Below, piece after piece: positions 3,001 to 42,644 of a stretch of DNA of 64,000 bases; position 1 is the stretch's first letter; every line of letters starts with the position of its first letter. The DNA is from Phyllosticta citribraziliensis. Lineage: Eukaryota. Location of the stretch: the NCBI RefSeq assembly GCF_038025025.1, contig NW_027117343.1:1-64000 (forward strand), written 5' to 3'. Position numbers and translations under genes: made by a program. The notes under the pieces were generated by a model that had not been told where the DNA came from, searched no databases, and saw only the letters and a list, made by a program, of their open reading frames with translations.

Positions 3001-5025
3001 TTATAAGACTATACCTATATAAGTACTTATAGCTATTAATTCCTATAATTTTAGCTTCTCTTTAGGGGGGGTATATTATTATAGATATATATATATCTAT
3101 ATAAGTACTAAGGCTAGTATAGATAAATCTAGTATTATATAGTTATAAGAAGTATAAGCCTTACCTTAAGTAGTAGCTAGCTATAGCTTAGGCTAAAACC
3201 CTTAGGCTAGTACTAGCTACTATAGCCTAGTACTAGCTACTATAGCCCTAGATAGATATAGTATAATAGCCTATTAATACCTTATCTTTATAACTTACCT
3301 AATAATAACTAAGGACCCTTATATAAAGGATAAAAGATAGAATAGTATAAAGAAAAGGCTAAAGAATATATAAGTAATAAGTATCTTTTATATTTTATTC
3401 TTTTAACTTATTAGATTTAATTAAGATATATATATATTCTCTAGTAGTTTACCTTTAGCTCTTATCTATATAATAAGAAATCTATAAGTTATAATATACT
3501 TATTATAAGGCTACTTTATATAATAGTCTTAATAGATACTACTAGCTAGGATAGCTCTCTTAGTAAGTAGTAACTATAATAGATTATAAGTAATACTATA
3601 TAATAATAGAATAGTATAATAAGTATTATATAATAGTAAGAAATCTTAATAAGTAACTAGCTAATAAGTAATAGACTATTAAATAACTAGCTACTACTAA
3701 TCTACTAGTATAGGGCCTTTCTTTTTACTCTTAATAAAGTATAGCTCCTTTAAGTCTTTATATAACTATTAGTTTACTAGATTATAGCTAATTTAAATAG
3801 GATAATAATATACTTTAATAAAGAGCTCTAGATATAGCTAAGATAGATAGTAATCTTCTATAAATTATATAGTTATAGAAGATAGTAATAGAGAAAAATA
3901 GTATAGTAATAAAGCTAGACTAATAATTATACTTTATAACTATATAGAATATCTAAATTATTAAAAACTACTACTATATATTATAAGTCTATATTTATAT
4001 AAGTACTTATAGCTACTAATTCCTATAATTTTAGCTTCTCTTTAAGGGGGGTATATTATAATAGATATTTATATATCTATATAAGTATTAAGGCTAGTAT
4101 AGATAAACCTAGTATTATATAGTTATAAGGTACTAGCTACTATAGGCTTAGACTAAATACTAGCTATATCTTAGGCTACTACTAGCTATTATAGTTTTAA
4201 ATAGATATAGTATAACTATCTATTAATATCTTACCTTTAGAAATAACTTAATAATAACTATTAACCCTTATATAAAGGTTAAAAGAGCTAGAAAGGTATA
4301 AAAAAAAGGCTAAAAAATAAATAAAAAGTAAGTATCTTTTATATTTTATTCTTTTAACTTATTATATTTAATTAAGATATATATATTTTTTAGTAGTTTA
4401 TCTTTAGCCTTAATCTATAAAATAAGAACTCTATAAGTTATAATAAATAGTTATTCTATATAGACTATATAATAACTACTCTTACTCCTTACCTATTAAT
4501 TATTAGTAGTCTATATTAATTTACTCTACTAGATACTATAATAATTTTCTACTAAATATTTAGTTATTTATTTATTTATACTTATTATTTATACCTAGCT
4601 TATTTTAGTTAGTTTAGTAGTTATTTTATTTCTATTTTATAGAGTCTATTAATTTACTACTAGTTACTATCTTTTATACCTCTTCTAGTACTAGTATTTT
4701 AGCTAGCTAAGTAAGTATATTAGTAAGTAGCTAGTCCTATCTATACTAGATACTATAATATATATACTATATAGTATATAATAAAGAGTAGTTATTATAT
4801 ATTTTATATTAAATAATTATCTATTTTTAAGCTAACTAAAAATAGCTAGTATATTTAATAATTCTAACCCTAAGTAGTAAGTATTAAGTATTATAAAATA
4901 TAAGTTATACCTAAGTATATATAACTCTTTTTTATTTAAAAAGATTTTAAACTACTTCTAGATTAAAATCTATTTTAAGAGTTTAAATATTAAGTATATA
5001 TAATCTATATACTAAACTTATATAG
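89..5025. mobile_element. Subtelomeric AT-rich block of RIP-degenerated repeat/transposon relics
   Basis: Extreme TpA enrichment with near-total absence of CpA/TpG and CpG by eye; the ORF track has nothing before 5308; abrupt change to GC-rich DNA at ~5026. Confidence 0.9.
2520..4445 (+). repeat. Tandem direct duplication (~2520-3496 and ~3505-4445), each unit ending in a putative PPT + RIPped LTR
   Basis: Matching blocks ~950-980 bp apart, e.g. TTAGCTTCTCTTTA(G/A)GGGGGGTATATTAT at 3051/4031, AGTATCTTTTATATTTTATTCTTTTAACTTATTA at ~3380/4331, CTATAAGTTATAATA at ~3482/4431. The G-run then TATT (RIPped TGTT) ... AATA (RIPped AACA) with an internal TATATAAAGG is consistent with LTRs; the duplication is firm, the LTR reading is inference. 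Confidence 0.7.
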
Positions 5026-5402: not shown

Positions 5403-7884
5403 TCACTTCTCGGACAGTTCGTCGCGCATTTCGGCGACGACGTTCTTGATCCTCTCCTCCTTGCTAATCTGGTCCACCCTTACCAAGACCTTTTCGAAAT
5501 CATAGGTGTCCTTAGCGTGAGTCCGGAAGTCTTCGCCAAGGGTCAACACGGTGCCGACGCCGACCAGTGCACGGTACAGCGCCTCGCCCTCGTCGAGCTG
5601 GTTGATGATCTCGATCAGATCATACAGCAGCGTCATGGCGCGGTTGACGTCGTTGCTCGGGCTCGTCAGCAACACCGCGAAGTTGATGTAGAGCGTCGTG
5701 ATGGCCGTGATGAGGTTGCGGTTCGAAGAATGGGTCTTGATGAAGGGGCGGATCAACGGATGCAGTGTGTCGAAGGTGCCATCGACGACCGTGCGCCCTT
5801 CCTCTGTTGAGAAGAGGTTGGCAAAGATGCGCACTCCGAGCATGACATTGTTGGGCGGCGATTCGGGGGCAAAGATGCCGGCGTCGCGCAGAATGTCGAC
5901 GAGCGTCGCATTGCCAGAGGATGTGTGGGTGGCAAGAGCGGGCGTCTTTGCTGCAAACAAGCGAAGCAAGTCAAGTCCAGGGAGGCGCTTGTCGAGGGGC
6001 CAGGTGGTCGCAATCTTCAAGGCGAGATCGATGCCGGCCGGCGTCACATTTTTGGCACTCGGCGAGTCCAGCTGTTTGCAGACTGTGGAGAGTGTGCCAA
6101 CGTCGCTGGGGTTCAAAGATACATCCTTGCGCCCTTCCGAAAGCAGCTGCTCATTGATTTCGCCAATCTTCTTTTCAATCACTTTGAGGTTTGCCGAGTC
6201 AATTTTGAGGTATTGGGTTTGCGGGAGGATTTTCGGCTTGGAGACGGGTGGTGCTTGCTGGGGCGCCGGCGCATCGACTTCTCCAGGTCGATATCTCGAT
6301 TCGGTCCCCCAAGGATCTGAGCCTGGAGCTTGAGTGGCCGGTGCGGAACTCTGGCCAAGAGTCGCGCCCTGGGTGTTGGTGACGATGAAGTTTGCCACCT
6401 GGTCAAGATACGAGAGGGGTAGCTCGTTGTCCTCGATGAATTTGCGGGCAGCATCGTACGGGTTTTGCGAGAGGTTGTAAGGAAGCTTCAAGGGGGGCTT
6501 TCCATCTTCAATGTCGACGTCAAAAACATAGTCAAAGTCTTGGCCGTTGTGAGAAATCTTTTTCCCACTGCTGCCAGCGGCATCCACGACGGTGCCGACA
6601 TTGATCCACTGCGCAGCGGCAGTCGACCAGGTGTATGCTGACACATTGCCGTTGGCTTCTCGAATCATCTGAACCTGGCCTTCTTTGGTACCGGATTTGG
6701 CCGTCAAGAACTCCGGGCCGGGGAGGTTCTCCTTGTTGATGTTGCCGACTTGCTGCTGCGGAATGGCGCTGTCCTTGACGGCATCGTCAAATTCCTTGAT
6801 ACTTGCAGCATCTGCTTGGCGTTCGGGATCCCGGCTGAAGACTCGCACGATGCGGTCACTGGCGCCCGACACAATGTCTCCGTTCACCGCGCACACGGCC
6901 ACCGACCAGACCGAGATTGCCGGGTGTGTAATGGTTTGCACGCACTCGTCTCCCCTCCAAATCCTGATTGTGCGATCTTCCGAACTGCTGACCAGCTCTC
7001 CATTGGGGAGTGCGGCAAGCGAGTAGATGAAGTTTTCGTGGCCGTGCAGTTCCGCCACCTGAGTTCCTTCGATTGTCCAAAGTCGAATGATGCCGTCATT
7101 TCCAGCAGAAGCAAACTGCGCTCCGGAGGGATGATTCGCGGGCAGGCGGCATAGCGCACGAACGACATCGGAGGAACCTTGGATGGATCTGAGGAGCTTG
7201 CCATCGTGGGTAAAGAAGCGAATCTGCTTGTCGGCGCATCCTGATGTCATTGTCAGTCATGCAGGTGGTACGAATGGGGCGCGGCCCGAGGCGTCCTTAC
7301 CGGTGATGATTATCTTCGTGTCGTAGGCCAGCACCGCCCACACACTGCCTTCATGGCCGCGTAAGACGGCCGACGACTCCCAATTGCCCAATGTCCAGAC
7401 GCGCGCTTCTTGGTCCCAGCTGCCACTGACAATTGTGCGCCCATCTTGGCTCACGTCGAGAGCGCAAACGTTGTGCCCGTGGCCGAGCAGCAGAGCTTCG
7501 GCATCATCCTGCAGGGTCCGAGTTGGCTGACGGACGTCGATGATCGAGTCCTTGCCTCCCGAGACAATCAGCCCATCCGGGTATGTGGACGAGGGAGGGA
7601 CGAAGGCGAGGGCGTTGACAAAGGTGGTGCCGCGGGCGACGATGGTGCAGTCAAAGGTGGGCGGGGTGTTGGACGACAGCTTCCACAGGCGCACGGAAGC
7701 GTCTCGTGATGCCGAGACGACAAAGGAGGAGTGTGGAAAGGCTACGCTTCTGACCTGAGGTTGCACAAATGAAGATGGTGAGCGAGGCGGTCCCGGGCTT
7801 GGGCTTGGGTTGGGGCTTGGGGAGCAGACAACTCACATCGTCGTCGTGGCCCCGCAGCTGAGCGGAGAGCTTGAAGTCGCCCAT
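5403..7884 (-). CDS. DOA1: Doa1/Ufd3/PLAA ubiquitin-homeostasis protein (WD40-PFU-PUL)
   Basis: Starts MGDFKLSAQLRGHDDDV; WD40 repeats (GHGHNVCALD, GHEGSVWAV, GHENFIYSL); PFU motifs DYVFDVDIEDGKPPLKLPYN and YLDQVANFIVTN; C-terminal PUL region; GT-AG introns ~7755-7836 and ~7241-7300. Confidence 0.95.
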
Positions 7885-14987: not shown

Positions 14988-15030
14988 AGCGGAGGTGGAG
15001 GCGGAGGCGGAGGCGGAGGCGGAGGCGGAG
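14988..15030. repeat. (GGCGGA)n hexamer microsatellite
   Basis: About 7 imperfect tandem GGCGGA units. Confidence 0.85.
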
Positions 15031-17705
15031 ACACCAAGCGAGCCAAGGGCGGACGACGTTTTTCCACTCCACTCCAATTCCCTTTGCTCGTCCAAGGAAG
15101 TCCCGCTGTCTCCGCCGTCTCATCGCTGCCCGTCTCCGTGCGACAGCAACAGCAGCGACTCAACCACCGCTCACTGCTCACGACCGCTTGCTCGCCTCTC
15201 TCTTTTTTCAAAACCCCCTTCGCCTCGCCACTTGCTCTGACATCCCTCGAAGCCACCGCGGAAACTTCCTGGCCATGTCAGCCCCCTAGTGCTCCCGCTC
15301 TATCGATTGTCCAGCATTCCTCCGCATCGCCGGCACGCTACCGCTGGCCACGGCTGACTGCAAATCTAGACTTCAGCTGGGCTGGCCAGCCCTTCACCTT
15401 TTGCCCCATCGACGTTTGATCATTCCATTCGAACCGTGGATTCGGTTGCGGCGCGCGTGCTCCTCAAGGCGGCTGACGAGAGCCAATTCCATCTTCATAC
15501 TTTTTCCTGTCTCATCCACCTCGCTACACTTGCGCCCTATATTTTCACTAGTAATTCCGTGGCTTGCATCTGCTCGAAAGAGCAACTGCTCCTGGAAGTA
15601 GCCGAATCGACGCCATTTCAAAGAGGTTTCGGTGGGGCGCGAAGCCTCGTTTTTCGCATCGACTTTGCGCCCTGCACTCCACTCCTCCACGTCCACGATG
15701 ATTACTCTAGCCGTCTTTCACGGCAGCAGGGAGTACGTTCCATGTTGAAATCGTGGCGCCCTTTTGTCTCTCGTTTTTCGTGCAAACAATTGAAAAGATT
15801 GCGCGTAATGAGACACCTCTGGAGGCGAGACACTTTGAGAAACAAAACCGCCATTACTGCCACACCATTATCGAGCAGGATAAACTCAAGCGGGGCGAAA
15901 TAGCACGTTCCCTGGGTCAACAACCATTTCCCCCAGGATAATCTTTCTCCCTTGTCTAGAGTGGTCAGCAAGCCTCATCCGCGCGCTACACCATGGTCAA
16001 ATTATTTCCTCGAACGAGACAAGACCGTAGCCTCTACATTCGCCAGCCTATCGCATTTCCACCTTCATCTCTGTCTGCTCACCACAGACCCCAGGATCTC
16101 ACACGTGTTACCCCACATTGAAATCCTTCCTTCCCGACAGCGGGTCCAGCCTCCTGCAACGCCTTGTCCTCATCAACTGGACCAACCACGCGCGCGCCGT
16201 CTCGCCCTGGCTCGCCTCATTCGGACTGTCTCCTCCGCTTGAACACGCCACGCGCACATTGCGCGCGAAACGCATTGCTGGTCTACACGGCCCAGTGTCC
16301 TCCAGAGCGACTGAGCTTTGGGTGCGTGCCGTCTTTCTCTCACTGCGGTTGCTAAACAATGCCCGGCTCGAATGGGCTTTGCATGAAATTGCGAACGCGT
16401 TTGGAAGATGTCGAGCCCTTCTCTACAACCGTCGACATGAGGCAAAACAACGTCGGGCTCTGTCCGAATACGATCCGCAACGCGTGTTCTCTGTTTCTCC
16501 ATTCCGGCACTGCTTGCCTCACTGTGCTTCACCATCGCCAAAACTGCGCTCTGATTCGCCCAGTGCACAGAAAACACTCTCATACACATGCATCTTTCCC
16601 CATTAATCCTCCCCATCGCTCGCCATGTCGCCGACTCGCCGATTTGCCGACCCACGCGATGTGCACCAAACACCGGGCCTGGCTCTAGACTCTTCGCACC
16701 GCCCTACGGAACGTCGCCCACCGAATACGACTGCTTCGGCACCTGTCCATTTGGCAATCACAACGTTGGACTGTTGCTCCGCCTCATCTTGCCGCACCTC
16801 TCGTCCACTTTCGAACCCAACGGCCGTCGCGTCGCCTTGCTTCGCCCAGCGCGCACAGTTCAACAACACACACTTGCTTCCTGGCTCAACGTCGAGCGTG
16901 CCCGTTGCGCGCTCCCTGTATATCCCTCGTCAGCCTGCCAGTGGGCTCGCGCCTAATGCTATTACGCGTCTAGGCTTGGTACGAGCCCATCGTCGAGTCT
17001 CGAGTGTTCAAGGAGAAGCTGGGACGAGATCGCTCCGCCGCACCGGGGTGATTCGAATACGTGGAAGATGTTGCCGTCGGCGTAGATTTGGAAAGAGAAT
17101 ATGTGGCCCCAGTGCTTTCCTCCCATGCGGCGGAGCGGTCAGTGCGGTGCATTGCTCTTGTGCTCAAGTCTTGGCCAGTGCCACGCCGCCCTCGCAATAA
17201 GGCTTCTCTTTTCCCTGATGAAAAGTATGGCCAAGCACAGTTGCACGCCGCGCTTGGTTCCGGGACTTGGCGCATATTCTGACTTTGGAGGTTCCCGTAG
17301 GTGCTGGAACCCTTGGGAATGCTGAGTTGATTATTTGCGTCGGTAAGTACCTTGCCACATTGTTAATGTCTTCTACGCCTTCGCAGCGTTCTTGGTCTCT
17401 TGCTTTGCAACCCATAGACAGAGAAACCGCGGTGTTCACGTCTTTCTTCATCAGTGCTCTGTGTTGGATCTGTCGCTGCCCTCATCATTCTGTCTTCTCT
17501 CCCGAAGGCTTTTGAGAATTGTTTCGAAGTCGGAAGGGCCTTGATGTGCAGCTATTGGTAAGTCATAATTGCGCCTTGCATCCGGCCATGGAACATCATG
17601 ACTTGTGCCGATGTAGCTCCTATCGCTTCTCTTCTTCGCCTCCATGATTGCTGTTGCAGGAGGATTTAAGCAGGTGGTCGCTTCTTGCATCAATCAAGTC
17701 ACTGG

Positions 17706-18548
17706 TCAAGACTGGTGCCTTCGCAGTGTACCATTGTTTGAAAGACGAGTCCTAGGATCATGTAAGCAATTCCCATCTCCCGCTTTGCCGAAGTGCTTGT
17801 GGACGACCCCGAATCCCCCTCTTCCAAGCTCTCCCAGGTTGACGTGGACTGATTTTCGAGAAGGCGTCTGGAATTTACTGGCAGGTTCTGTTGGCGGTTC
17901 GGCCGGATCCGTGAGACAAAGTCGTTGCATTGGAGGGCCTTCTTGTTCGCGCCGTTTCACCCAGCTCTTGAGATTTTCTTCGTAGTCCTCGATGTTTTTG
18001 CCGTGGTGGGGGAACTCAATTTTGAATCTGAATCCTGAGATACCGGGAACATTGATGGTGACGTGTTGCCAATATTGCTCTCCTGAAAGAAAGAGGATCC
18101 AGGTGAAATGGTGTCGGATCTCCTTCTCATTCTGTCCATCATACGCGACAGACATACCGTGAGGCGATACATTGTGCAATAGAATCCGATGAGACGCGTC
18201 AATGGTAATAAAGAAGTGGTTGCGGCTTACACCTCTCATCTTTGGTTTATTTGGGTCGTGAAGTACAACTTCACTGCTTGAGGAGGCGCCGAATCTCCAA
18301 CCAACGCCACGTTCTTCGAGGTGGTCGCTGAATCTGAGAAAGAGATTTCCAGGTGCTTTCCATGCTTCTTCAACATCTTCTTGGTCACAAGCTGGAGTCG
18401 GTTGCCGGCTGAAGTTTCTGACATCATCTGTCGCAGGGCCGGTCGATGGGAAATGAATTTGTAAGCCCTGATTTGCCTTGACTCCACAGGCGGCAAACGA
18501 GTGAGATTCAGTTGGCATCAAAACCGCAAAGACATCGGGATCAATCAT
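17706..18548 (-). pseudogene. Truncated paralog of the FHA-kinase (FHA-like domain plus Gly-rich loop only)
   Basis: Aligns with 21503-22390: MIDPDVFAVL/MFDSNVFAIL, GVSRNHF/GVSRLHF, DGQN...FTWIL, GFRFKIEFPHH/GFRFKISFPHH, LGRGGFGVV/LGQGGFGVV. Similarity then stops and there is no HRD/DFG/APE. Confidence 0.85.
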
Positions 18549-19384
18549 TCTCAGGATGTTGGAATTTCAAAAAAAGGCGTCTGAGTAATTGGTTGCCCCA
18601 AGAGAAAATAATGTATCAGAAGGCACATGTGAAGGTGTCGCTGGTCTAGATAGCGCCGTGGTCGGTTAATATCATTTTTCAAAGCATCGTGATGTGGTCA
18701 TAGCCATGCAGAATTGCCGCTGTGTAGACGCTGGCAGGCTCTGCGGCGCTTGTTAACACGCGATTTCTGAAAGGGAATATTTCCTTAATTGCTTCAATGC
18801 GACGTCGATCTCGGAGAGCTCTCCATCTTGGAAGCCAGAAGCGGCTCTGTGTGGAAGTTCATGTGACTCTTTCGGTCAAGGCGGCTATTCAGTGGTGCTG
18901 CAAGGGCCCGCTGAAGCTGCGGGTGAGAGGCGCAGGTCTTCATCTCTACAGCGTCGGTTCCAAGAAAAGCGCGACGAGGCAGCCACATGATGAGCTTGCT
19001 GTGACGAGATATCACTCATGCTTTCCGAGATTACGCGAGAGAAAAATTGTGCGTGGGCGGCTAATGACAGGTTTTGCGCGCTCGCGGGAGAAGATGGGAG
19101 GAGGCGGCGTAGATAGGGTGCATTGAGGGTGGAGGCCCGGGCCTGGTGAGTCTCAGGATGATGATTCGAACGCTCGCGAAGGAGTCAGCCGATGAGCGAG
19201 GGTCCAGGTGCGTTGAGGACGAGAAATTCCATGGCTTGGGAAGCGCTGCGCAAGACACGGCCGTTAAGATGTTGCTCTTGGTTGTGTGGTGGTGGGCGCT
19301 CAGGCGAAAGCAGAGGGTGCCAAGTCAGCCCCAGGATTCACGGTCACCGCCCTCAGATCACGACCCAGCTCCGATTCACTTGTG

Positions 19385-19597
19385 CGACCAATCAACCACA
19401 AGCGTGCTTCTGCAATGGTGACAACTGGTCACACCTGGAGTTCTGGACGTTTGTGGCTTGCGGTCCGCGTTTCCAATTCTCACATCCTGATGCGACCATG
19501 CGCGTTGCGCGTGGCCTTCTTCCCGCATCTTTCTCGACTTTCTCTCTATCTGCTTTCTTTGGTTATGGCTTTTGGAGACTGGCTCAGCGCTGATTGA
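19385..19597 (+). pseudogene. Duplicated promoter and 10-codon stub (MAFGDWLSAD*) of the triple-repeat partner gene
   Basis: Homologous to ~23234-23493, with an identical 27-mer TCTGCAATGGTGACAACTGGTCACACC (19409-19435 = 23256-23282); ATG 19565 encodes MAFGDWLSAD-stop versus MASGDWLSAEE. Confidence 0.85.
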
Positions 19598-19906
19598 GAT
19601 GCAAGCTTAAACGGCATAAAACAGGGGAAAAGCCATGTTCATCTATGAGTGTTGTCTCCGAGCGTAAGTCTCCTAGCATCCAGAGGCCACTAAAGGTAAG
19701 GAAATAACCAAGGAAATAGTGGTAACTGGTAAGGAGACCTCCATCCAATTCCCCGTTCTCGGTCCAAAACTGCGTGGCAAAAGGCGCAAGTCCCGGCAAC
19801 ACACTTGTGTAAGTGGAAAGCCGAATGCCTTTGGTCGCTGAGTGGACAAGTGATCCGATCCTGCTTCTGTGAAAGGACCGAGCGATTGACCACGATTTTG
19901 CGTCTC

Positions 19907-22390
19907 TTACTTCCTGCCCCAAAGCCGTGAAATTCCGCCAGCCTTCTTCTCTGGCATTTCGCGACTGTTTGTTGTGTGAGGCACAGACGCCGGGTTAGGT
20001 TGAAGTTGGTGGGCTGCGCGTTCCAGCGCTGCGGCGGACCTTGTCACCCTGGTAGTCGGGATACCTGGCTTGGTGACGCGCGATGTCTCAATCCTATCGT
20101 TCCTGTTGTTGGCTGGCACTGGACTCCGGCTCCGGTCTGAGCGCCCAGAGGGCGCTTGCACTGCGTGCCCAGTCATCGCTCCTTTTTGAGCCATCAACAA
20201 CTTTGGGTCTACGAAGTTTTTGGGACTCAAAGAGTTGTTTTGACGATTCATTGGTGTTTGGGCAGTCGGCAGAGACTTCAAAAATTGTTGAGTCTCTGTG
20301 CCGTAGTTCAAGTTGCTTTGAACTGCAGCAGATCCTTGTGGGGCCTTGGAGTTGCCCGGATGAATCTGGAAAAAGGCGCTATCAAAGGTCGCTTGGTCTG
20401 TGTGCGGTCGCGCAGTCTTTTGATCGCTGGTAGAAGCTTGTCCGGTCGAGACGTTCAACTTGTTTGACCGCGAGAACCCTGTGTAAGGATCTCTATCTGC
20501 ACTGTGGCCTATGGGTTGCTTGTTGCTGAGGTTGGTGGTTTGTTTCACAAAGTGCCTCGACGCAGTGGGGCTGCTTTGCATGCTGCCAGGGTTGAGAGAC
20601 TTGCCCGAAAGGTGTCTTGTCGTAGTGGCAGTGCCTCGCACGCCGTCGGATTTGAGAGACTGGTCCGATGGGTGTCTTGGAGGAGAGGGAGAGCCTTGAA
20701 CGCTGCCTGGGTTGAAGGATTGGTCCGCAATGTGCCTCAACATACTAGAAGAAAGCTGTGGGATCTCAGGTTCGGCGTTCGATTGTGCCGCGGGAATGTT
20801 CGGTTTTGGTCCCCCGTAAGCAGGACCGTTCTCATACTGTGATCCCGCAAGCTGAAAGAGACATTCAGCATGGCCAGAAAGCAGGCATTGGTTCGCATTG
20901 AGCCGATGCAGCGGGTCGGGCCGCAGCATGCTTGCCAGGAGGCGTTCCAAAGCACTGTTGCTTTTCTCCATTCGAGCTACCGCTGGGCGTAGTTTCTTTG
21001 CATATGGTATGACCTGTTTGAAGTCCGATCGTGGCGGATCACCCGGAAGCATTCTCAAAAGACACAGCATCGTGATCCCAGCCGACCAGATGTCAACAAG
21101 CGGGCCTTCATAGTTGTGGGATAATACCTCTGGTGCCGTGAAGAGTGGTGTTCCACAGAGAGTGATCATGTTGCTAGAAAAGTGCTTCGCGAATCCAAAA
21201 TCGGCAATGGCAATGCTCAAAGGTGATAGGCTCCTCAGGAGAATATTTTCCGGCTTTAGGTCCCGGTGCGCAAATTGGCGGCTGTGCATATGATCGAGCC
21301 CCATCAAAACTTGACGGAGAATGCTCACAATCCCATTGATGGCGGTTGGAGGAGGCGGATTCGTCTGTAGACTGCCGAGTGGGCAGTACTCCATGGTAAG
21401 TTTCGGCTTTGGGGCTGCCTCGTCGAAGTTGACCACTTGAACGACGTTGGGCTTTCAGGCTGTCAGCTAGGAGGTCAGAAAATTCCGCACATTCAGGCTT
21501 ACGTGCTTGTTCGCCATCATCATTTCGACCTCTTTTCGGAACTGGTCCATTTGGGACTTCGAATTCCTGATCAACTCTTTAACGGCGAATACTTGGCCAT
21601 CTTCCAGGTCAATGAGTCTGCGGACTACTCCGAAGCCCCCTTGTCCCAGTGGTCTGTCAATCGTGTACGTAGCTCGTCCCTTTCCACCGGAAATAGGCCT
21701 GCTTACTGCCGGAGTGATGTCGTCGGAAACCAATGCAAGTGTCGCCATCGATCGCGGTTGGATTTTGCTATTCCTCACGAAGTCTCTCAACTTTTGAATG
21801 TAGCCCGCGTCTCCAGAGTGATGGTGCGGAAAGCTGATTTTGAAACGAAAGCCGGTTTTCCGAGGGACTTGGATTGTGACCTCGTTCCAGTATTTTCGGC
21901 CAGGTTCCAGGGACAGGATCCAAGTGAAATTGCTTCGGATGTCGTTCGCATTTTGCCCGTCGAAACTGACTGCCATCCCCTTATCTGATGACATACGCAA
22001 TATGACCCGAAAATTGTCGTCAATCTTGATGTGGAAGTGCAGACGACTGACGCCTTCGACCACTGACTCTTTCCGCGTGGTCTGAAGTACAACGTCACAC
22101 TTTGTTGAAGAAACGCCAAAACCCCATCCTTCCCTTGCATCCTTGAGATTAGGCAAGTCGTCAAACCTGAGTAAAAGATTGTTTGGAGACTGGTTGAAAT
22201 CATCTTCGTCTACCTCTTCAGGTTGTAGATTCGCGGTTGACTCTCGACTCAGATCCCTAATCACTGCTGCCTCTGTATGTGGCGCTGGCGATTGCCGCAA
22301 ACGGTTGTTGGCTCGCAACTTGGAGGCTTGTATCGCCGCTTCGGAGTTGACCAAGGGGGTCAGGATGGCGAAAACGTTTGAATCAAACAT
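19907..22390 (-). CDS. FHA-like domain + Ser/Thr protein kinase (Chk2/Rad53-like domain order), ~810 aa
   Basis: GQGGFG, AVKEL, HRDLKPEN, DFG, CGTPLFTAPE and DIWSAG all intact; phase-0 GT-AG intron 21452-21502 joins the two ORFs (ANKH|PNVVQVV); N-terminal FHA-like FG...SRLHF; long low-complexity C-tail. Confidence 0.92.
20521..20740 (-). repeat. Coding 60-nt (20-aa) imperfect tandem repeat in the kinase tail
   Basis: RHIADQSFNPGSVQGSPSPP / RHPSDQSLKSDGVRGTATTT / RHLSGKSLNPGSMQSSPTAS / RHFVKQTTNL; the DNA aligns at a 60-nt period. Confidence 0.8.
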
Positions 22391-23255
22391 TTTCAAACTT
22401 TGAATGGCGTCCGATAAAGGCGGGGACGTGGGCAGGGACTTTCAATGAGTTGATGATAGGGCCTTGAAAACTAGCCCGGATTGTAGAAGGATTCGTGGTC
22501 GTTTGCGAGGATCAATCCCCTTAGGCATCTTGACAGAGCTCTATTTAACCCGAATCAAGTCTGATCAGGCTTGGTTCTTGGAACAGCGTCAAACAGGGCT
22601 CGACATGCCGCGTGAATGAACGCAAAAAGTGGATCTTGTCACGGTGAGGTTACTGTGTTGAAGACACATAGCCGCTCGCTCAGGCGGCTCAAGTGGCGCA
22701 GTTCCCTCAGGCGGTTAATGAGTGGTGTTGAGTGTTTCCGGTCACGTTGTAGAAGCGGCGCAGGTCCTCCATTCTCCAGCGCCTCTTCCAAAAAGGGCGT
22801 CATGTGCTAGCAACCATGACGAGTTCGCTGCGAAGCGACAACGCATCCGCTTTTCTGGAGTACGCGAGATTAGACTCCCGTCCCGGCGGCTATGCAATGG
22901 CTTTGCGTTCTCGAGAGAAAGCTGCGAGGAGGCGGCGTACTGTTTTGACGTGTGTGGCAAGTCATCGCTCGATGGCTCCGGAGCCTGGTGGAGAAATTGA
23001 GATGGAAAGGAACGACTGGAAGATGCGGCCAGAATGATGTTGGATGCATCGCAAGGCAAGAGCTGCCACGGTAGGATGACAACGACATGGAGACGGTGGT
23101 TTGTTGATGAAGCCAGGTTCAGGACACCGCGGAAGAGGGTGCGGAGGCAGGGCGACGCTTAGTCAGCGAAACCCCACGCACGTCGTGACGCTCAGAACCA
23201 GAAACGAACACAAGTCCGCGAACGCATTCTTTGGCCAATCAGCTACAAGCGCGCG

Positions 23256-23282
23256 TCTGCAATGGTGACAACTGGTCACACC
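23256..23282. promoter_or_regulatory. Conserved promoter element with GTGAC-N5-GTCAC inverted repeat, downstream of a CCAAT box
   Basis: 27 nt identical in both otherwise diverged copies of the divergent promoter; CCAATCA lies ~20 nt upstream in both. Confidence 0.5.
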
Positions 23283-23465
23283 ACGACGTTTGTGCTTCGC
23301 GGCGCGGCAAGCGCTCGCGCGCTGTGGCGTTACAACCTGAATGTCCCATGATTCCCGCATGTCCGCCTTTCAAAGTCTCGCATCCTGGCGCGACTTCAAT
23401 GCGCGTCGCGCGTCGACTTCCTCCCGCAGCTTTCTCGACTTTCTCTCTGCCTGCTCTCCTTGGTC

Positions 23466-26400
23466 ATGGCGTCCGGGGACTGGCTCAGCGCTGAAGAGTT
23501 GGAGCGCATGGACCGCAACGCTCTCGCCATGGATCTCGGGCTCTTTGACAAGACACTACAAAAAGCACCATACACTGCCCGCTTTATCCCTCCGGAACGC
23601 TTTCACACTCCCACTCCTTCCGATCAAGCCTCGCCTCCATTTGTCAATGCAGAAAGAGAAAATCGGGGTCGCTTGGCTTGGGAGAACAAACACCGGCAGG
23701 CTCTTGAAGATCAAGGTTGTCCTCCATGCTGCCCCAGCAATGTCCAGTTCCCTTACAACAGTCCGCCAGCTGAGTATGAAGGCATCGTCAATTGGTGGAA
23801 GAGCAGAGGCCAACCATACATTCTTGCGTCACAGCTAGAAGATTGGGAGGATTTCTGCGAATGGCGCAAGGATGCTCGACCACAGTTCAAGCACCATTTC
23901 CCCATCTACGTGGACAAACTTCGCGCGAGACGTGAGCACTTTGGTCTGGAAGGTGAGGTTCATTTGAAACGCAAGATTCGGCACCAAAGTCGGTTGCAAA
24001 ATTGGATTGAATTCCAAGATTACCACCATCGAATCCAGGCATATCGCGAGATGGAAAGTGAGGAGGCACAAGCGAAAGAGGATCGCAAAATCTTGTTACA
24101 GTGGATCGAGGAGCAGCGCAAAAGAATGGTCGCTGAAGAGGCTGAAGCGACGAGGGACCAGATGAGAGCAGGACTACTGTAAGACTCAACCATATTCAAG
24201 CCCTTGTGGCCCATGCTGACAGTGTACCTTCCTCCAGACGTCCCCTTCAACACCAATCGGATTCTACCGACCTCTCTTCTGAAGACTCGTTTGATCCTGA
24301 AGCCTTCTCAGAGGCGGTCGGAAGAAGTCTGGCGCGTATTGCTCGTCCTCTAGATCTTGATGCCTTGGACCAACGCTTGGAAAACGCGTCCACCCCTCGC
24401 TGGGCCTCTCCTGGACGCTTTGTTACACCCGAGCACTTGACACCCGAATCGCAACGAACGCGCACTGCAAGTCCTGACAATCCAGAGCGAAGACGTCAGT
24501 GGGGCGTAGCTCTGGAAAACAAGGCACGGAAGACTCTCGAGGATAGTGGATGTCCTCCATGTTGTCCTATTGATATCGAATACCCTTACAGAAGGGCTCC
24601 CAGACGCTATATCGACATTATGAAATGGTGGAAAACTCAGTCTGAGGCAATTTTCAAGGAGCGCAATTGGATCCACCAGGCCCACCTAAAAGACTGGGAA
24701 AAGTTCTGCAGATGGCGCAATCAGCGTCGACCACAGCGATCCACTAGACAGGCTTTCAGTAGCTTTCTGGACGAATTTCGAGAAAGAAGAAGACAGTTTG
24801 GCCTGGAAGGTGAAGTTCACCTCGAAGCGGAGGTCGAAAACCAGACACAACTACAGAATTGGATCGAATATCAAGACTTTCATCATCGAGTGCAAGCACG
24901 TCTTGAGCAAGAACCCTACAAAGACTGGGTCGAACAACACAATGCCGTGCTGCCCTGGATCGAAGAGCAGCGCAAGATCATGGTTGCCCAAGAGGAAGAA
25001 GCGAAATCTGGACCAACGACGGAGCACGCGGCATGGGTTGACTACGCGATCTCACGTTTGGTCCGCGAAGGCAAGTGAGTGTATCCCGGATAGCGGCCTG
25101 CAGTGGATCAAGTTCAATTCTGACACAAATCTTACAGCACGGTCTCTCTCCCTGACGATGTTGAGCGTACAGAAGAGCAAATGAACGAATTGGTAGCAAG
25201 ACTACGGTAAGAGTGCGGCGCTTCAAATCCCTCGTGTCAAATGCTGACCTGGTGTATTGAAGATCTTCTCCCAGTCTTGTACCGGAAGAGAAATCGCATC
25301 CTCCCGACCCAGATGCCTTGACCACAGCCTTGGAAATCGCCTTGGCTCAACCGTATACCAGACCCGCTTCTCCTGGAGCTGCCTCTTCTGGGAGTGGCGA
25401 GACAACTCCCGATCCCAATTCAGAGGGAGCACTAGAAGAGCACTTGCAATACTGCCGAGAGAATATGGTCCACGAAAACGAAGCTCGGAAGCGAATGGAA
25501 GAAATTGGATACCCTCCATGCTGCCCTGCCAACTTTGAATTCCCGTATGACGACAATCTGGGCGAATACGAAGACATAATCAAAGCTTGGAAAGAGGTTG
25601 GCCGAGACTATCGTGTCCTTTGCGTCCAACTTACAAATTGGTCAGAGTCTCGCAGATACCGGAAGCTGTATCGGCCAAAGCACTTGACAAGGGCCGCCTT
25701 TTCCCGCTACCAGGACGAGCTACGATTGAGGCGACGTAAACACAGGCTGCAGGGTGATGTCAGTCTTGCAGCTGATGTAAACAGCCAAACCTTTTTGCAA
25801 AATTGGATCGAATACCAAGACCACCATCTCCGGAGGTTCGAGCAAGCTGAGAGGAACCTCGAACAAGCGAAAAGGGAGTACGGGCCTGGCACGTTTGGAT
25901 ACTTCCGGAACCTTGTTGAGACTCATTGGGTCTTGTCGCAATGGACAGAGGAGCAGCGCAAAATCATGGTTAACGAAGAAGCCGAAACCAATGCTGCAGC
26001 GGAGACACGACCGGCCCCAGTCCCCACAGAACAAACGAAACAATCGCGAAGTCAAAAAAACTCCAGCAGAAAGAAGACAGCGGTGGCGAAATCCATCTCG
26101 CTGGAGCGTAACCCTCCATCCAGGAAACGCCGCCACCAACCGCAACTTGAGGAAGCCGACGCGGACGCAGACGCGCCTCCAAGCAAAATCAGGCGCACAT
26201 CCAAGGCATCGCAGGCACCCAAAGCAAAGACTTCAAAGAACACCGGTGCTCCTGCTCCTCGTCGCAGCACCCGCCAACCACCAGAAAGTTCTCAAACAGC
26301 ACAAAGGGCGACCAAGAACACGACGAGAGAACCGGCCGCGGCAAGCGGAGGTAGCAAAACTACTCGCGAAAGTGCTCGTCAAGTACAGCAAACCGGCAAA

Positions 26401-27090
26401 CCAGCAAGAAGAGGGCGTAGGAAAGCACAGGAAACGGCGGAACCGGCGAAGAAGACGACAGAATTTACTGCCTCGAATGAAACTGCAACCACTGCAGGCC
26501 GTAGAACTCGACAGGCACCGCAGACTACCGAGCCAGGGCAAACAGCGCCCGCGAAGAAGACCAATGGACCCGCCGCCGCCTCCTCCTCAAATGCCCCCAT
26601 AACTGCCATCGCAGCGACAACATCCGGCCGCAGACCACGCACTCGCCTCGCACAACAAGCCCCCGAGCAAGCACCATTGCCAAACCCTCCCAAAACGAAG
26701 ACGGAGAAACCAGGCCTCGCGAACACAACAGCAAGCACGAGAGCAACCCAGTCATCTACCAACCCTCAACACCACGAGCAGGCCCCGGAGCCGGTCGCAG
26801 CAACAACAACGCCTGTACGCCGCGGACGGACGAGCAAGTCACGCTCAGCCGCCACCGGCGCTACCGCCGCAGCTGTTGAAGCAAAATCAGAGCCAGCACC
26901 AGCGGCAGCGGCGGCAGTTGGACAACGGGCGCCTGTTCGAAAGACGCATCCCAAGCCCGAGCCGGTGCAAAATACGACACGAGGCGCGCGATCTACGAAG
27001 CAGGCGCAAGAAGCTGCAGCGGCAGCGCCGCCGCCGCCGACGACGACAAGGCGCAGCGGACGGACGGGTGCGAGGACGGGCAGGAGATGA
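23466..27090 (+). CDS. Uncharacterised ~1148-aa protein: three tandem G(C/Y)PPCCP...QNWIE(F/Y)QD domains plus a basic low-complexity tail (4 exons)
   Basis: Exons 23466-24178, 24238-25074, 25138-25206, 25263-27090. Introns 24179-24237 (GTAAGA..GCTGAC..CAG), 25075-25137 (GTGAGT..CTGAC..CAG) and 25207-25262 (GTAAGA..GCTGAC..AAG) are all phase 2 and join the three track ORFs in frame (3447 nt). Confidence 0.85.
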
Positions 27091-28538: not shown

Positions 28539-29243
28539 TCAAAAGTCTTGCACCCCCGTCTCGCCGGTGATGGCGGGGGTTCCCGGTCCCGAGTGCACCA
28601 ACGCAGGGTCCTCTCCGTCGAAATACTGGTCCTGCGCCGTTCGCTCTTCCTCGGCCACATCGTCCCACTCGTCACTCTCGTCGACCTCCTCGTAGCGAAA
28701 GTCGCGGTCCTCGCCGCGCAAAAAGCGCTGCGTCATGTCGTCCCGCCACCGCGCCAGGCCCTCTTCCTTTGTCATGTTCGCCAGCTCGTCGGCCTCGTCC
28801 TCGAGCACTTGGATCTCGCCGTTGGATCTCCGCCTGACGGCTACGCTGCTGCCATCTGGGTTGTGGAGGGCGGCCAGCTTGGCCTCGGAGCGCAAGAGGT
28901 CGGCTTCGAGCACGCCGCTGTAGCCCTTGGCGCGGCCTTCGGCCTCGCGTTCGGCAGGAGTCTGGAATCGACGGACAAGACGGTCGTAGAGGAGCGGGTC
29001 GGCCAGCTCGAGGCCCGAGTTGAAGTATTCGGGGTGGGTGTCGAGGTAGCGCTTGCGGCGGTTCTTGACGCGGATGCGGTGTTGGCGGGCTTTGGCTTGT
29101 TGGTCGTCTCGCGAGAGGTGGTGTTGTATTTCGGAGGTTTGTGGGGTGGAGAGGCTGGCTGCTGATGCGGCATCGATCTGCATGGGCTCGGGGTCGTGGG
29201 CGTGCATGGTGTCTGGAGCAATGGTGCGGTCGAGAAAAGGCAT
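28539..29243 (-). CDS. CCDC97-like (DUF2052) coiled-coil protein
   Basis: RIRVKNRRKRYL, ADPLLYDRLVRRFQ, MTQRFLRGEDRDFRYEEVD and AQDQYFD motifs; single exon. Confidence 0.85.
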   Translation of the reverse strand: MPFLDRTIAPDTMHAHDPEPMQIDAASAASLSTPQTSEIQHHLSRDDQQAKARQHRIRVKNRRKRYLDTHPEYFNSGLELADPLLYDRLVRRFQTPAEREAEGRAKGYSGVLEADLLRSEAKLAALHNPDGSSVAVRRRSNGEIQVLEDEADELANMTKEEGLARWRDDMTQRFLRGEDRDFRYEEVDESDEWDDVAEEERTAQDQYFDGEDPALVHSGPGTPAITGETGVQDF

Positions 29244-29817
29244 GTCCGTCGCGGTGGGCTGCTCCTACGACTGGACGATGTTGGTTGGGAGTGGAGGAGG
29301 AGTGAAGGACGCCGTGGACGGAAATGGGAGAGTCAGAGTCGTTTGTAGGCGAGGGTCGGGTCGGTGGAGACGGTGGACAGGCCGGTGAGGGACGGGGAGC
29401 GTGTGAGTTGCGATGTGCAGAGCAGGCGACCCGAAGCGGCGACGGTGATGTCAATCAGGCCCACCGACGCCGCCGTCCCGACATCCGACCTGAACCCTGG
29501 GCTGCATCTCAACCCCTGCATGCACCCGACCACCACCCAGGACCCTTCAACACCATGGCCGCCGCTCCACCACGCCTCGACAACCACAACGACCCCTCGC
29601 CCTCCTTTGGCCGCTCGCTGCTCCTGTCGCTCCACTACTGCTGCTCCTTTTTTGTCATGTTCTACCGCATCCTCTGCTGTCGCTTCTAACCCAACCTTCA
29701 CCCTCCCATCTCGCCTTTGATACCCCATCCGTCTTGTTCCGCCCGCCAGCTGTCCTTTTAACCACAACTATAAATATCACCACATCACCACCTCTTTTCG
29801 GACGTCCCCCTCCCCAC

Positions 29818-33851: not shown

Positions 33852-34665
33852 ATGAGCGGAATCGCCCCGTCTGCAGGAAACCCAGTCCCGCCCGACGACA
33901 ATGACGACTCCTACGCCAATGCCTCCATCGACCACATCCATGCCGAGCACCCACATTTAACCGTACGCCATCCACCACGATCCCTCGGCCACTGATTCCC
34001 GCACCCCCTTGACCCCTTCCTACCCCTAGTGATACGTACTTACCCCTCTCCAGCCGCTGGACCTCCAAATCCTCTCTCTCCCCTCCGACGACCATTACAC
34101 CCCACACACCTGGTCAAACCTGCAACAGCTCCTCGGCTCCAACTCGCTGCACCTGCTGGCCCGCTCGCCTTCTCAGCTACGAGCCTACCTCGCCTGGACA
34201 CGCCGGATCCGCGCCGACTACGGCTCGCTCACAGATTACATCCTCGCCGAGCGCCTGCACTGGACCCCGCTGCCAGACGACGCGGAGGGAGCGCCGCCCC
34301 GCTTCCAAGTCCAAAACCCGACGCCCTTTGCCGACCCGGCCGACTATGCCGTTCTGCGGAATGACTGGCCGTACGGTCTGGAGGCGGGCATCACGCATCT
34401 CTGCGTGTGGCTCAAGACTCCGACGCCCATCAGGCCGGAAGACGGCGACCTGACGGACGAGGCGCGAGCCCTGGTTGAAGAGTTTGTGACGCGCGAGTTT
34501 CGGCGTGCCGTTGGAGAGGTGGATGAGGAAGGCAGGGGGGAGAAGGGCGAAAAGGTGCTGTGGTTCAAGAATTGGGTTGCTCTGCAGAGCGTCCGAGGCG
34601 TGGATCACGTGCATGTGCTTGTGAGAGGAGCAGAAGAAGAGGTCCTGCGGATGTGGCTGAATTAG
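33852..34665 (+). CDS. DUF3605 / GIG1-like HIT-fold protein
   Basis: Spliced (intron ~33963-34053): YILAERLHW, LRNDWPYGLEAGITHLCVWLK, WFKNWVALQSVRGVDHVHVLV. Confidence 0.85.
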
Positions 34666-40969: not shown

Positions 40970-41210
40970 GAGAGGGAGCTGGAGCTGCAGCTGTCGAGTC
41001 GCGGCGGATGACGTTTTGGGTGTGCAGTCCAGTTGTGACGGGCGGGAAGGAGCTTAGGTTCGCTGCCCTACCACTGCTCCTTCCCCGGGCGGCGCTGTGG
41101 CCACTGATTGGCGGGCCCCCCTTCCGTTGGCTGCCCTGCCCTCTGCCCTCCCTCTGCTCCATAACATCACTCCCGCCCACTCCGCTCCACCTCCTGTCCT
41201 GTCCACCACC

Positions 41211-42644
41211 ATGACGCCCCCTCTCAACCTGTACCTCTTCACCTGGAACCTGGCCCGCAACCTCGTTGATCCTCGTCAGCTCGCCGTCGATTTTTTTCGC
41301 GCCGCCGCCCCCTCGCGCTCAGGGTCCAGCTCGCCCTCTGGCTCTGGCTCCGGCTCCACCACAACAACGCTCCCTGACGTCATTGTCCTGAGTCTGCAAG
41401 AGATCGCCCCAATCGCATATGCCTTTCTCGGTGGCCACCTGCTGGACCCGTACCTGAGTCGCATCATCGACACCTTGCCGCTCGCCGCCAAACACCACGG
41501 CGCGAGCCCAGATACCTATCGTCATGTGCTGACCAAATCCCTGGGCCTGACGGCCATCATGGTCTTTGCGACTCCCGACGCCGCCGACCGCATATCCTGG
41601 ATCCAGACTGCCGGCGTCGGCGTCGGCCTCTGGGACATGGGCAACAAGGGTGCCGTAGGAGTCCGTCTGGGACTGCGCCCCGAGCCCGACACCGACCTGC
41701 AGGAAGACGTCGAGCTGACCTTTGTCGCCGCGCACCTGGCGCCCATGGAGCCTGCAGTAGCCAGGCGCAAAGAGGACTGGGAGGCGATAGCGCGCAACCT
41801 CGTCTTCGAGGCCGACGCCGAGCACGCTGCAGCCAAGGCGGGGGAACCTGCAGTAGAACGCGGCGCTCGAGACGGGGACGACCAGCAGCCCTTGATATCA
41901 AAAGACTATGCCTCGAGCGCTGCAACCGCCCTGCACGGCATCTACTCGCCGACGGCTCACGTCTTTTTCGCTGGCGACCTCAACTACCGCACCAGTGACA
42001 CGCCCCCCTCGCCACAGGACCACCATTCGTTCCCCCAGCTAGAAGCATCGCCCGACTCACCACTGCACTATTCGCATCTCCTGAAGTCAGACCAGTTGGC
42101 TCGCGAAAAGGCCGCTGGCCGCGTCTTCCAAGGCTTCGTCGAGGAACCCATCACCTTTCCACCAACATACAAGTTTTCATTTAGTAGACGACCGGTCCCT
42201 CCTCCGCCATCAGAGACTCCGTCTCCCGAGCCCGAATTGACGACATGGCCCTGGGCCAAACATCGCTTCCCCAGCTGGTGTGATCGCATTCTCTTCCTCT
42301 CGTCTTCCAGTCCCTCAAACGACAGCAGCAGTAGCGACTCGCCTCTCCAGCCTCACTCCTACACGTCTCTCCCCATCCTCGCATCCTCTGACCACGCACC
42401 CGTCGCCCTGTCCCTCTCCCTCATCCCCAAGCCCGTCACACCGCCATCTGACCCAGCGCATCCGCGCAACAAGCCGCCGTTCCCGCTTAGCCCGGACTGG
42501 AAGCAGCGCCGCGACGCAGCGCGAAGGAAAGAGGTCGTCGTTGGCGTGCTGTCATGGCTGGCCTTGACGTGGGAGGGCAACGGCGTGTTGCTGGCCGTCA
42601 TTGTCGGCTGGGCTGCCGTATGGGGTGTCTTGGGAAGCAGGTAA
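41211..42644 (+). CDS. Inositol polyphosphate 5-phosphatase with C-terminal membrane anchor (Inp54-like)
   Basis: TWN, LSLQE, GNKGAVGVR, AAHLA, FAGDLNYR, FPPTYK, PSWCDRIL and SDHAPV motifs; hydrophobic C-tail. Confidence 0.92.
   Translation: MTPPLNLYLFTWNLARNLVDPRQLAVDFFRAAAPSRSGSSSPSGSGSGSTTTTLPDVIVLSLQEIAPIAYAFLGGHLLDPYLSRIIDTLPLAAKHHGASPDTYRHVLTKSLGLTAIMVFATPDAADRISWIQTAGVGVGLWDMGNKGAVGVRLGLRPEPDTDLQEDVELTFVAAHLAPMEPAVARRKEDWEAIARNLVFEADAEHAAAKAGEPAVERGARDGDDQQPLISKDYASSAATALHGIYSPTAHVFFAGDLNYRTSDTPPSPQDHHSFPQLEASPDSPLHYSHLLKSDQLAREKAAGRVFQGFVEEPITFPPTYKFSFSRRPVPPPPSETPSPEPELTTWPWAKHRFPSWCDRILFLSSSSPSNDSSSSDSPLQPHSYTSLPILASSDHAPVALSLSLIPKPVTPPSDPAHPRNKPPFPLSPDWKQRRDAARRKEVVVGVLSWLALTWEGNGVLLAVIVGWAAVWGVLGSR

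Follow-up and report, generated by a model that had tools for sequence, protein, structure and literature searches.

A divergent gene pair of an FHA-kinase and a triple-unit partner in Phyllosticta citribraziliensis: a candidate conserved module of Pezizomycotina beside an apparently old partial second cassette

FHA-kinases form the core of DNA-damage and meiotic checkpoint signalling, and the enzymes Rad53, Chk2, Mek1 and Dun1 use their FHA domain to bind adaptors on chromatin at primed phosphothreonines. Phosphothreonine binding by FHA domains involves the arginine of a 'GR' motif, the serine and histidine of 'SxxH' and the asparagine of 'NG'. Here we describe a locus in a 64,000-nucleotide stretch of the Phyllosticta citribraziliensis genome (assembly GCF_038025025.1, contig NW_027117343.1, positions 1 to 64,000 of the forward strand; hereafter the window), at which an FHA-kinase gene, kinase A, stands head-to-head with the gene of a protein built from three related domain units, the partner. 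On balance we favour reading this region as a conserved divergent two-gene module of Pezizomycotina, represented by the full kinase A/partner pair, accompanied by an old partial second cassette. We judge it very likely that the two genes work as one conserved functional unit, and they are treated as a unit because of their conserved divergent synteny and not because of any joint decay of the second cassette. The features of the full pair are as follows.

22390 to 19907, minus strand: kinase A gene, from open reading frames (ORFs) and an RNA-contig joint; product of 810 amino acids (aa)
22390 to 21503, minus strand: kinase A exon 1, with the FHA domain, the Gly loop and the VAIK lysine
21502 to 21452, minus strand: kinase A intron, 51 nucleotides (nt), seen as a CT..AC joint in an RNA contig
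21451 to 19907, minus strand: kinase A exon 2, with the remainder of the kinase domain and a disordered tail
20549 to 20728, minus strand: 20-aa motif repeat in the kinase A tail, three tandem 60-nt units (repeat family D2, 63-70% identity)
22391 to 23465, no strand: intergenic region of kinase A and the partner, 1075 nt between start codons, head-to-head
23235 to 23494, plus strand: partner leader block and first 10 codons, homologous to 19388-19593
23466 to 27090, plus strand: partner gene, exons 23466-24178, 24238-25074, 25138-25206 and 25263-27090
23634 to 24161, plus strand: partner domain unit 1, aa 57-232, bounds from phmmer
24470 to 25012, plus strand: partner domain unit 2, aa 316-496
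25444 to 25998, plus strand: partner domain unit 3, aa 601-785

The conservation of this arrangement was assessed in metagenome contigs, which were scanned with a 14-sequence alignment of the partner domain, and the 28 loci obtained were then searched for FHA regions by tblastn with five FHA-region queries. An FHA homologue was present at eight of the 28 partner loci (L001, L002, L003, L006, L008, L014, L022 and L023), in all cases on the strand opposite to the partner and with its start codon 0.65-1.7 kb upstream of the partner domain; at seven of these eight a kinase domain follows the FHA region directly, and L008 ends at the contig edge. Upon dereplication by sequence and flanks 12 distinct assessable places were retained, L027, L028 and the short duplicates not being among them, and 7 of the 12 hold the head-to-head FHA-kinase/partner pair. 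The paired places L003/L006, L022 and L023 are close relatives, with 86-89% nucleotide identity in the domain. In a quick tree of the partner domain, which carries SH-aLRT support only and several open forks, the paired members lie on several separate branches, and unpaired copies are sister to paired ones (L011 to L014, L026 to L008, L024 to L001), a topology consistent with an old pairing that partner genes have left again and again.

Within the genus the same neighbours recur by accession order. In P. paracitricarpa a partner (KAK7605729), a kinase (KAK7605730) and a partner-family gene (KAK7605731) are numbered consecutively, as are KAK8180041, KAK8180042 and KAK8180043; in P. citricarpa the kinase is beside the partner family in KAK7543109, KAK7543110 and KAK7543111 and likewise in KAK7539131, KAK7539132 and KAK7539133; and in P. 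citriasiana a kinase (KAK7511704) is followed by a partner (KAK7511705). In Peltula, the one partner-family gene looked up lies on a different contig from the FHA-kinase. An earlier reading of the window from its letters (the sequence-only reading) had described an intact FHA-like kinase gene with its ATG at 22390 on the minus strand, head-to-head with a partner starting at 23466 on the plus strand, and had proposed that the two genes act together. The coordinates hold, at a distance of 1075 nt, and the co-occurrence that it proposed to look for was found at the 7 of 12 metagenome places; the idea of a unit stands on this divergent synteny and on the Phyllosticta accession order, whereas its derivation from joint decay does not.

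The metagenome contigs also gave several side observations. At L007 (positions 726-1995), one of the 12 places, exon 2 of the kinase stands some 560 bp away from a partner gene, and the exon with the FHA domain and Gly loop is missing or degenerate; this remnant is the mirror image of the FHA-only kinase of the window described below. A stretch made up of a partner-family gene, about 0.45 kb before it and 0.5 kb after it is found at 89-91% nucleotide identity in two unrelated contexts (L014:9387-11046 against L011, L013 and L009), of which L014 has the FHA-kinase and the other has none; this is a recent duplication of the partner gene alone. A 2.6-kb segment with an unpaired partner gene is inverted relative to both flanks between two different assemblies (L011:8781-11370 against L013:8803-11364), and no inverted repeats were found at the ends of this segment.

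By profile and catalytic motifs kinase A is a eukaryotic protein kinase. Its exon 2 matches Pfam Pkinase (PF00069) with an E-value of 7.7e-35 and 121 bits, against a cut-off of 31.7, and the catalytic motifs LGQGGFG, FAVKE, HRDLKPEN, DFG and TAPE are all intact in the translation. The Pfam FHA profile (PF00498) remains under its curated cut-off of 20.7 bits (E 0.017, 16.0 bits), and the N-terminal region was assigned on its predicted structure. An AlphaFold2 (AF2) model of aa 1-237, built from a 14-sequence alignment, has a mean pLDDT of 74.4 and, when compared with the PDB by Foldseek, gives 16 matches at E<=1e-3, the top one being the first FHA domain of Rad53 (FHA1; 5t2s_A, E 1.5e-4, probability 1.00), with the FHA domains of Mek1 and Chk2 lower in the same list at weaker E-values. 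According to this model the N-terminal region of kinase A has the FHA beta-sandwich fold. The family also has a conserved N-terminus of its own, M-x-D-x-N-V-F-A-V-L-T-P, and kinases carrying it are found in Xylographa and Peltula as well. The nearest relative of kinase A is the P. paracitricarpa orthologue P0178 (831 aa), with 54% identity across 100% of exon 2; the repeat stretch of the kinase A tail and the C-terminal end GGISRLWGRK are also present in P0178. A word-indexed search with kinase A exon 1 against longer proteins returned no matches, from an index that missed the known relative P0178, and a search of the same kind with residues 1-250 of P0178 returned only the protein itself, the index being known to miss relatives.

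The partner has a spliced coding sequence of 3447 nt that encodes 1148 aa with no internal stops, and each of its three introns shows up in RNA contigs as a GT..AG joint. The RNA evidence throughout consists of spliced, unstranded contigs in two public runs that are not on record as RNA; in these contigs all four introns of the pair, one in kinase A and three in the partner, are exact joints. Except for one exon model, the protein is identical to P0001 (NCBI, Phyllosticta citribraziliensis). As the sequence-only reading had it, this is a triple-repeat protein: the three all-alpha domain units are mutually 40-45% identical in protein (DNA repeat families D1, D4, D5 and D7), and they are followed by a basic, low-complexity, disordered C-terminal tail of about 360 aa that ends in RRSGR.

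All three units align to a family of 290 representative clusters at E<=1e-3, a number that falls to 153 at E<=1e-10 and to 7 at E<=1e-30; most members are single-unit proteins of 200-500 aa. The hallmarks of the family are an all-alpha unit of about 175 aa, the motif G-C-P-P-C, a W..W..F/W series, NWIE[FY]Q[DN]YH and WIE[EQ]QR. Members with a named source belong to Phyllosticta and to further ascomycetes of several classes, lichen-forming ones among them; the genera include Peltula, Pyrenodesmia, Lignoscripta, Seirophora, Lobaria, Gyalolechia, Sclerophora, Trypethelium and Chlorociboria. In Pfam, a scan of six gene pieces gave nothing for the partner domain, and none of 75 members is accounted for by a domain family at E<=0.001, a single weak match to DUF1706 (E 3.4e-4) being the only one seen; a scan of the partner domain against NCBIfam gave no matches, and the family profile found none among solved-structure sequences at E<=1. 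The 'ankyrin 2,3/unc44' annotation, which the sequence-only reading had brought up for similar proteins, finds no echo in the family: none of the 75 members has an ankyrin match in Pfam, and among 30 clusters looked up the named ones are called 'hypothetical' or 'uncharacterized'. The AF2 model of unit 1 is all-helical, with a mean pLDDT of 86.6 and values above 90 over aa 60-237. Against the PDB the best Foldseek E-value was 0.61, with no match at E<=1e-3, and in a wide search with VIA-align the best Z of 6.4, a value common among helical proteins, came from the terminal helical hairpin (residues 172-237) only, residues 57-168 being barely covered. The partner domain is a real and unannotated family without a clear fold match; a new fold is not claimed, given how barely the front half is covered. 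In the literature text that was accessible, including full-text searches with peptide motifs, no description of the FHA-kinase/partner pair, of the partner domain or of its motifs was found.

Two short motifs of the partner family lie at the centre of the mechanism considered below. Most relatives end in TRSGRxSKPPxRW at the extreme C-terminus, and a strict version, S[GSTNA]R-4-P-2-[FWY] within the last 40 aa, is present in 50 of 150 representatives, a looser pattern in 74 of the 150. A second motif, TPP[PLV]D.E, precedes CPPC in 39 of 58 assessable units, and in 37 of these 39 at a distance of 27-28 aa; it is a plausible proline-directed phosphothreonine site that could be read by an FHA domain, and is offered as a lead only.

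The region between the two start codons is covered by RNA contigs except for 23063-23238, the contigs ending at 23062 and 23239, which is no proof of transcript ends. The part next to the partner is the part that recurs in the second cassette: 19463-19593 and 23361-23494 are 82% identical by blastn (E 5e-33), 19388-19435 and 23235-23282 are 92% identical over 48 nt (repeat family D6), and a further repeat, D3, is 85% identical over 96 nt. This block contains a CCAAT box and the palindrome GTGACAACTGGTCAC, which among the loci compared were seen in the two window copies only, and no deeply conserved intergenic motif was found, with no 9- or 10-mer common to more than 3-4 of six locus groups. 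Since the partner contig has its first base at 23239 and the high-identity block opens only four bases earlier, at 23235, this block may be 5' leader together with the first 10 codons of the partner, and not promoter; the apparent promoter of 80-92% identity may thus be mostly leader, with the proviso that contigs cannot fix a transcript start. The block also holds a 31-codon upstream ORF (23399-23494, and 19498-19593 in the second copy) that overlaps the partner ATG and ends at the breakpoint TGA; with 21 of its 31 residues conserved against 85% identity in DNA, it is probably not a conserved peptide.

The second cassette repeats the arrangement upstream, with the following features.

17706 to 18548, minus strand: kinase B, an FHA-only paralogue; ORF of 280 codons, ATG at 18548, ending 22 codons past the Gly loop
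18549 to 19564, no strand: intergenic region of kinase B and the stub, 1016 nt between start codons
19565 to 19597, plus strand: partner stub, with ATG, nine more codons and TGA; 8 of 10 residues equal to the partner start
19593 to 19594, no strand: breakpoint at which partner homology ends sharply, the next 313 nt running into the kinase A 3' end
17343-17454, 17558-17616 and 17762-17863, plus strand: introns of a spliced transcript, GT..AG joints in RNA contigs with GTAAG donors

The repeated arrangement noted in the sequence-only reading, with an ATG at 18548 on the minus strand and another at 19565 on the plus strand 1016 nt apart and homologous partner-proximal DNA, was borne out, as were the loss of the kinase domain past the Gly loop, confirmed by tblastn and the family profile, and the stop of the stub at codon 11. 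Kinase B is identical to kinase A at 102 of 261 positions over residues 1-258 (39%, BLASTP E 8e-49), and the homology ends just past the Gly loop. No kinase core was found beside it by tblastn at E<10, and the family kinase profile, run with filters off on the six frames of 15000-18000, detected the Gly loop only. Its own match to the Pfam FHA profile (E 0.018, 15.9 bits) is, like that of kinase A, under the curated cut-off of 20.7. The further claim that both halves are disabled and decaying jointly is not supported for the kinase half. The chance of an open frame of 280 codons at this base composition is 1.4e-6; identity to kinase A over 249 aligned codons is 55/63/34% at codon positions 1/2/3; all six invariant columns of the 14-sequence family alignment are retained; and the exact 280-aa protein is present in a public protein collection. 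Since third positions are saturated and positions 1 and 2 are held, the split appears old, with both copies having evolved as coding sequence. Taken together, the open frame, the codon pattern, the invariant residues and the public protein make kinase B look like a long-maintained FHA-only gene under purifying selection. An Atlas cluster of ascomycete FHA-only proteins of about 240 aa scored 0.95 against the kinase A FHA region, which is a lead only. Repeat-induced point mutation (RIP) was considered as the cause of the divergence between kinases A and B and rejected, the GC content being alike in both copies and the differences not transition-dominated. The plus-strand spliced transcript overlaps kinase B in antisense where the ORF of the latter ends, and no convincing ORF was found in it, none exceeding about 100 codons across its junctions.

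The duplicated segments, 17796-19593 (about 1.80 kb) and 21617-23494 (about 1.88 kb), differ in a graded manner. Identity is 34% at third codon positions, 60-68% in the middle of the intergenic region (block 18860-19110) and 80-92% in the 200-260 nt next to the partner start (block from 19381; sliding identity and blastn). One neutral event cannot give such an uneven pattern, and the identity of the leader block could stem from gene conversion, from a partial copy made later or from strong constraint. As far as these comparisons go, the second cassette is an old partial duplicate, consisting of a selected FHA-only gene and a partner leader with 10 codons cut at a rearrangement breakpoint.

Repeat units and partner genes have also been reshuffled elsewhere in the genus. 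P. capitalensis has three partner paralogues at alternating accessions (for example KAK8230895, KAK8230897 and KAK8230899), and its neighbouring paralogues measure 335, 572 and 689 aa in the accessions of one assembly and 561, 620 and 247 aa in those of another. In a tree of individual units, window units 1 and 2 each fall beside the unit of like number in the P. citriasiana partner P0003 (61% identity, support 96, and 69% identity, support 99), and window unit 3 is by its position an orthologue of the second unit in P0175 (45% identity, support 95), a separate two-unit gene of P. citricarpa that by accession order lies on the opposite side of the kinase from the main partner. This mosaic grouping indicates that repeat units moved between neighbouring paralogues. 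The Phyllosticta locus, as read from these sequences, is one that has been repeatedly rearranged, with partner genes of one, two or three units and partner-family genes flanking the kinase. The stub of the window occupies the position where a second flanking partner gene would be expected, yet its 10 codons are nearest to the window's own partner (8 of 10).

How the pair might work can be put forward tentatively, as a possible scheme in which a kinase is co-expressed with a nuclear, chromatin-tethered substrate or scaffold. The shared promoter region would co-express kinase A and the partner, the terminal arginine motif would anchor the partner on nucleosomes, and a primed phosphothreonine in the partner would serve as docking site for the FHA domain. 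The kinase would then act locally, its targets being the partner itself or chromatin proteins close by; the FHA-only kinase B might serve as a competitor or decoy for the same sites. A complex prediction with the FHA region of kinase A and partner unit 1, run without alignments or controls, returned a score of 0.00.

Several observations weigh against the favoured reading of a conserved module with an old second cassette, or against this scheme for it. Binding, phosphorylation and nuclear location are so far predictions of the scheme. The 'GR' arginine is replaced in 14 of 14 aligned family sequences and the 'NG' asparagine gives way to K in kinase A and to H in kinase B, so that phosphothreonine binding may be atypical; the serine and histidine are kept (GVSRLH in kinase A, GVSRNH in kinase B), and the asparagine is retained in P0194 and P0267 (STNG). 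The terminal motif of the Phyllosticta partners is reduced to RRS[GTI]R, the window tail RRSGR being without the proline and aromatic part, and the TPP motif of the window partner is degenerate (SPPF, TASPD, TTPDP). Four of the 12 metagenome places (the L011 group, L019, L024 and L026) show no kinase in the 4.9-10 kb that precede the partner, from which it follows that the partner can exist alone. Adjacency in the other Phyllosticta species is one of accession order only. As to the second cassette, the RNA contigs over kinase B are unstranded and the plus-strand transcript overlaps its 3' end, and the 80-92% identity of the leader block misfits one ancient duplication because synonymous sites are saturated.

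Other explanations of the locus have to be set against these data. Kinase A and the partner could be co-regulated neighbours only, sharing a bidirectional promoter region while their proteins neither touch nor act on each other, which we consider unlikely. Promoter architecture alone can conserve divergent pairs, and a partner family found without a kinase at 4 of 12 places agrees with such a view; the arrangement nevertheless persists though the intergenic sequence is unconserved between distant loci, both gene starts were copied together in the window duplication, and the kinase is numbered directly beside the partner family in three Phyllosticta species. For the second copy, one random segmental duplication of about 1.9 kb, with ends in the kinase past the Gly loop and at partner codon 10 and with neither piece functional, is very unlikely. 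The sharp right boundary at 19593/19594, the missing trace of a kinase core to the left and the similar segment lengths of about 1.80 and 1.88 kb are what it would predict, and for the stub half the idea of a mere breakpoint, which the sequence-only reading had named as its own refuting case, is upheld at that boundary. It does not hold for kinase B, with its 280-codon open frame (P = 1.4e-6), conservation in the order second > first >> third codon position and invariant residues kept, nor is the very uneven divergence along the segment (34%, 60-68%, 80-92%) like that of a single neutral event.

A selfish or conflict system, whether toxin-antidote, spore killer or non-self recognition, whose copies duplicate and decay with the conflict, is likewise very unlikely. 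Several observations would suit it: congeners look divergent by raw identity (54% for the kinase and 61-69% for the partner units), the numbers of partner genes and repeat units vary among Phyllosticta species, truncated copies exist (the stub, the L007 kinase without FHA and kinase B), and partner genes repeatedly spin off from the pair. Against it stand the constant orientation of the pair on several separate branches of the family tree, members in several ascomycete classes, for which long vertical retention is a better fit than a young driver, and a setting among housekeeping genes (Doa1-like, Cdc37, RabGAP and ABC transporter); kinase B, moreover, is conserved and not decaying. No toxin, nuclease, HET or NACHT domain was found by Pfam in the six gene pieces (E<=0.1) or in the 75 partner members (E<=0.001), and at the same thresholds the HET, NACHT/NB-ARC and WD/ANK/TPR families had no match in either set. 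Sequence-based analyses of this locus and family yielded no evidence for a toxin-antidote or driver role. At the level of the pair, its spread across divergent branches of the tree and its housekeeping setting argue against a young selfish element, and the copy and repeat turnover in Phyllosticta is compatible with conflict. An older variant, quite unlikely as well, would see an ancient and fast-turning conflict module in which a chromatin-tethered sensor or 'bait' is policed by a checkpoint-like kinase, for genome defence, drive or non-self recognition, the spun-off copies being debris and decoys.

The surroundings of the locus are otherwise ordinary. Window positions 1-5000 form an AT-rich block (GC 0.19-0.26 against 0.50-0.65 elsewhere) that ends abruptly near 5000, about 12 kb from the locus, and looks like a RIP-degraded repeat island. 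Housekeeping neighbours lie at 5406-7256, 28542-29264, 34033-34662 and 41058-52280; they include a Doa1/PLAA-like WD40-PFU-PUL protein, a CCDC97-like protein, a DUF3605 protein and a protein of the endonuclease/exonuclease/phosphatase family, and further an ABC transporter, Cdc37 and a RabGAP-TBC protein with EF-hands.

If the favoured reading of a conserved two-gene module is correct, fungi would have, beside the known checkpoint enzymes, an extra, lineage-wide FHA-kinase with its own partner gene. The pair is a candidate kinase-substrate or kinase-scaffold system in fungi with little signalling worked out, and the partner family, which counts at least 290 sequence clusters and has neither a Pfam model nor a recognisable solved fold, could be named and studied in its own right. 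The locus also illustrates the ways in which a gene pair is duplicated, loses one half and exchanges repeat units, which bears on the origin of kinase decoys and of FHA-only regulators.

Among fungal killer and incompatibility genes, Spok, wtf and het/NLR loci resemble the locus in copy-number turnover, truncated paralogues and divergence between close species, and Spok proteins also hold a kinase-like domain. The present system differs from them in consisting of two genes instead of one, in its widely conserved fixed arrangement and in that the Pfam scans detected neither a nuclease nor a HET, NACHT or other death domain. For kinase B the nearest parallel is TIFAB beside TIFA, in that an FHA-only paralogue accompanies a full FHA protein; this is an analogy of layout only, and the TIFA/TIFAB heterodimer (8wwy) is among the weaker fold matches of the kinase A FHA region. 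For the tail of the partner family, arginine anchors for the nucleosome acidic patch are known from LANA-type peptides and from CENP-C. In CENP-C, according to PMC6776904, arginines bind the acidic patch and aromatics follow 7-8 residues later, namely R717/R719 with Y725/W726 in rat and R521/R522 with W530/W531 in human. The partner-family tail is likewise basic and disordered, with arginines and then an aromatic 8 residues on, a resemblance of short motifs only; the partner has no cupin or other CENP-C domain, and the Phyllosticta partners keep RRSGR without the proline and aromatic half. By this analogy the partner is probably chromatin-binding, and should the C-terminal motif bind nucleosomes it would be a fungal addition to the short list of acidic-patch binders.

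The closest comparison remains that with the checkpoint kinases. Kinase A has the same order as Rad53, Chk2, Mek1 and Dun1, that is, an FHA domain followed by a kinase domain, which in those enzymes is of CAMK type; its predicted FHA fold is nearest to Rad53 FHA1, and the structure of the Mek1 FHA domain with Hop1 pThr318 (5yyz) is among the fold matches. In contrast to Rad53 and Chk2, its kinase domain is nearest to ULK1, AMPK, STK24/25 and CDPK (E 1e-22 to 1e-18) among the best 60 of 804 solved-structure sequence matches; PAK, MARK and similar kinases are also in these best 60, and no Rad53 or Chk2 entry is. Rad53 matches kinase A exon 1 weakly (E 0.012), and its aa 1-70 contain neither SQ nor TQ, whereas Rad53 and Chk2 have an SQ/TQ cluster before the FHA domain. 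The family further differs from the four enzymes in having no FHA 'GR' arginine, in its own conserved N-terminus and in belonging to a fixed gene pair with a novel partner. Because the kinase domain matches ULK1/AMPK/MST-type kinases best, and in view of the missing SQ/TQ and 'GR' arginine, kinase A is not filed as a checkpoint-kinase orthologue, its resemblance to Rad53, Chk2 and Mek1 being one of layout and FHA fold. The FHA-kinase module itself is of a known type, and the partner family is the new, unannotated component that accompanies it.

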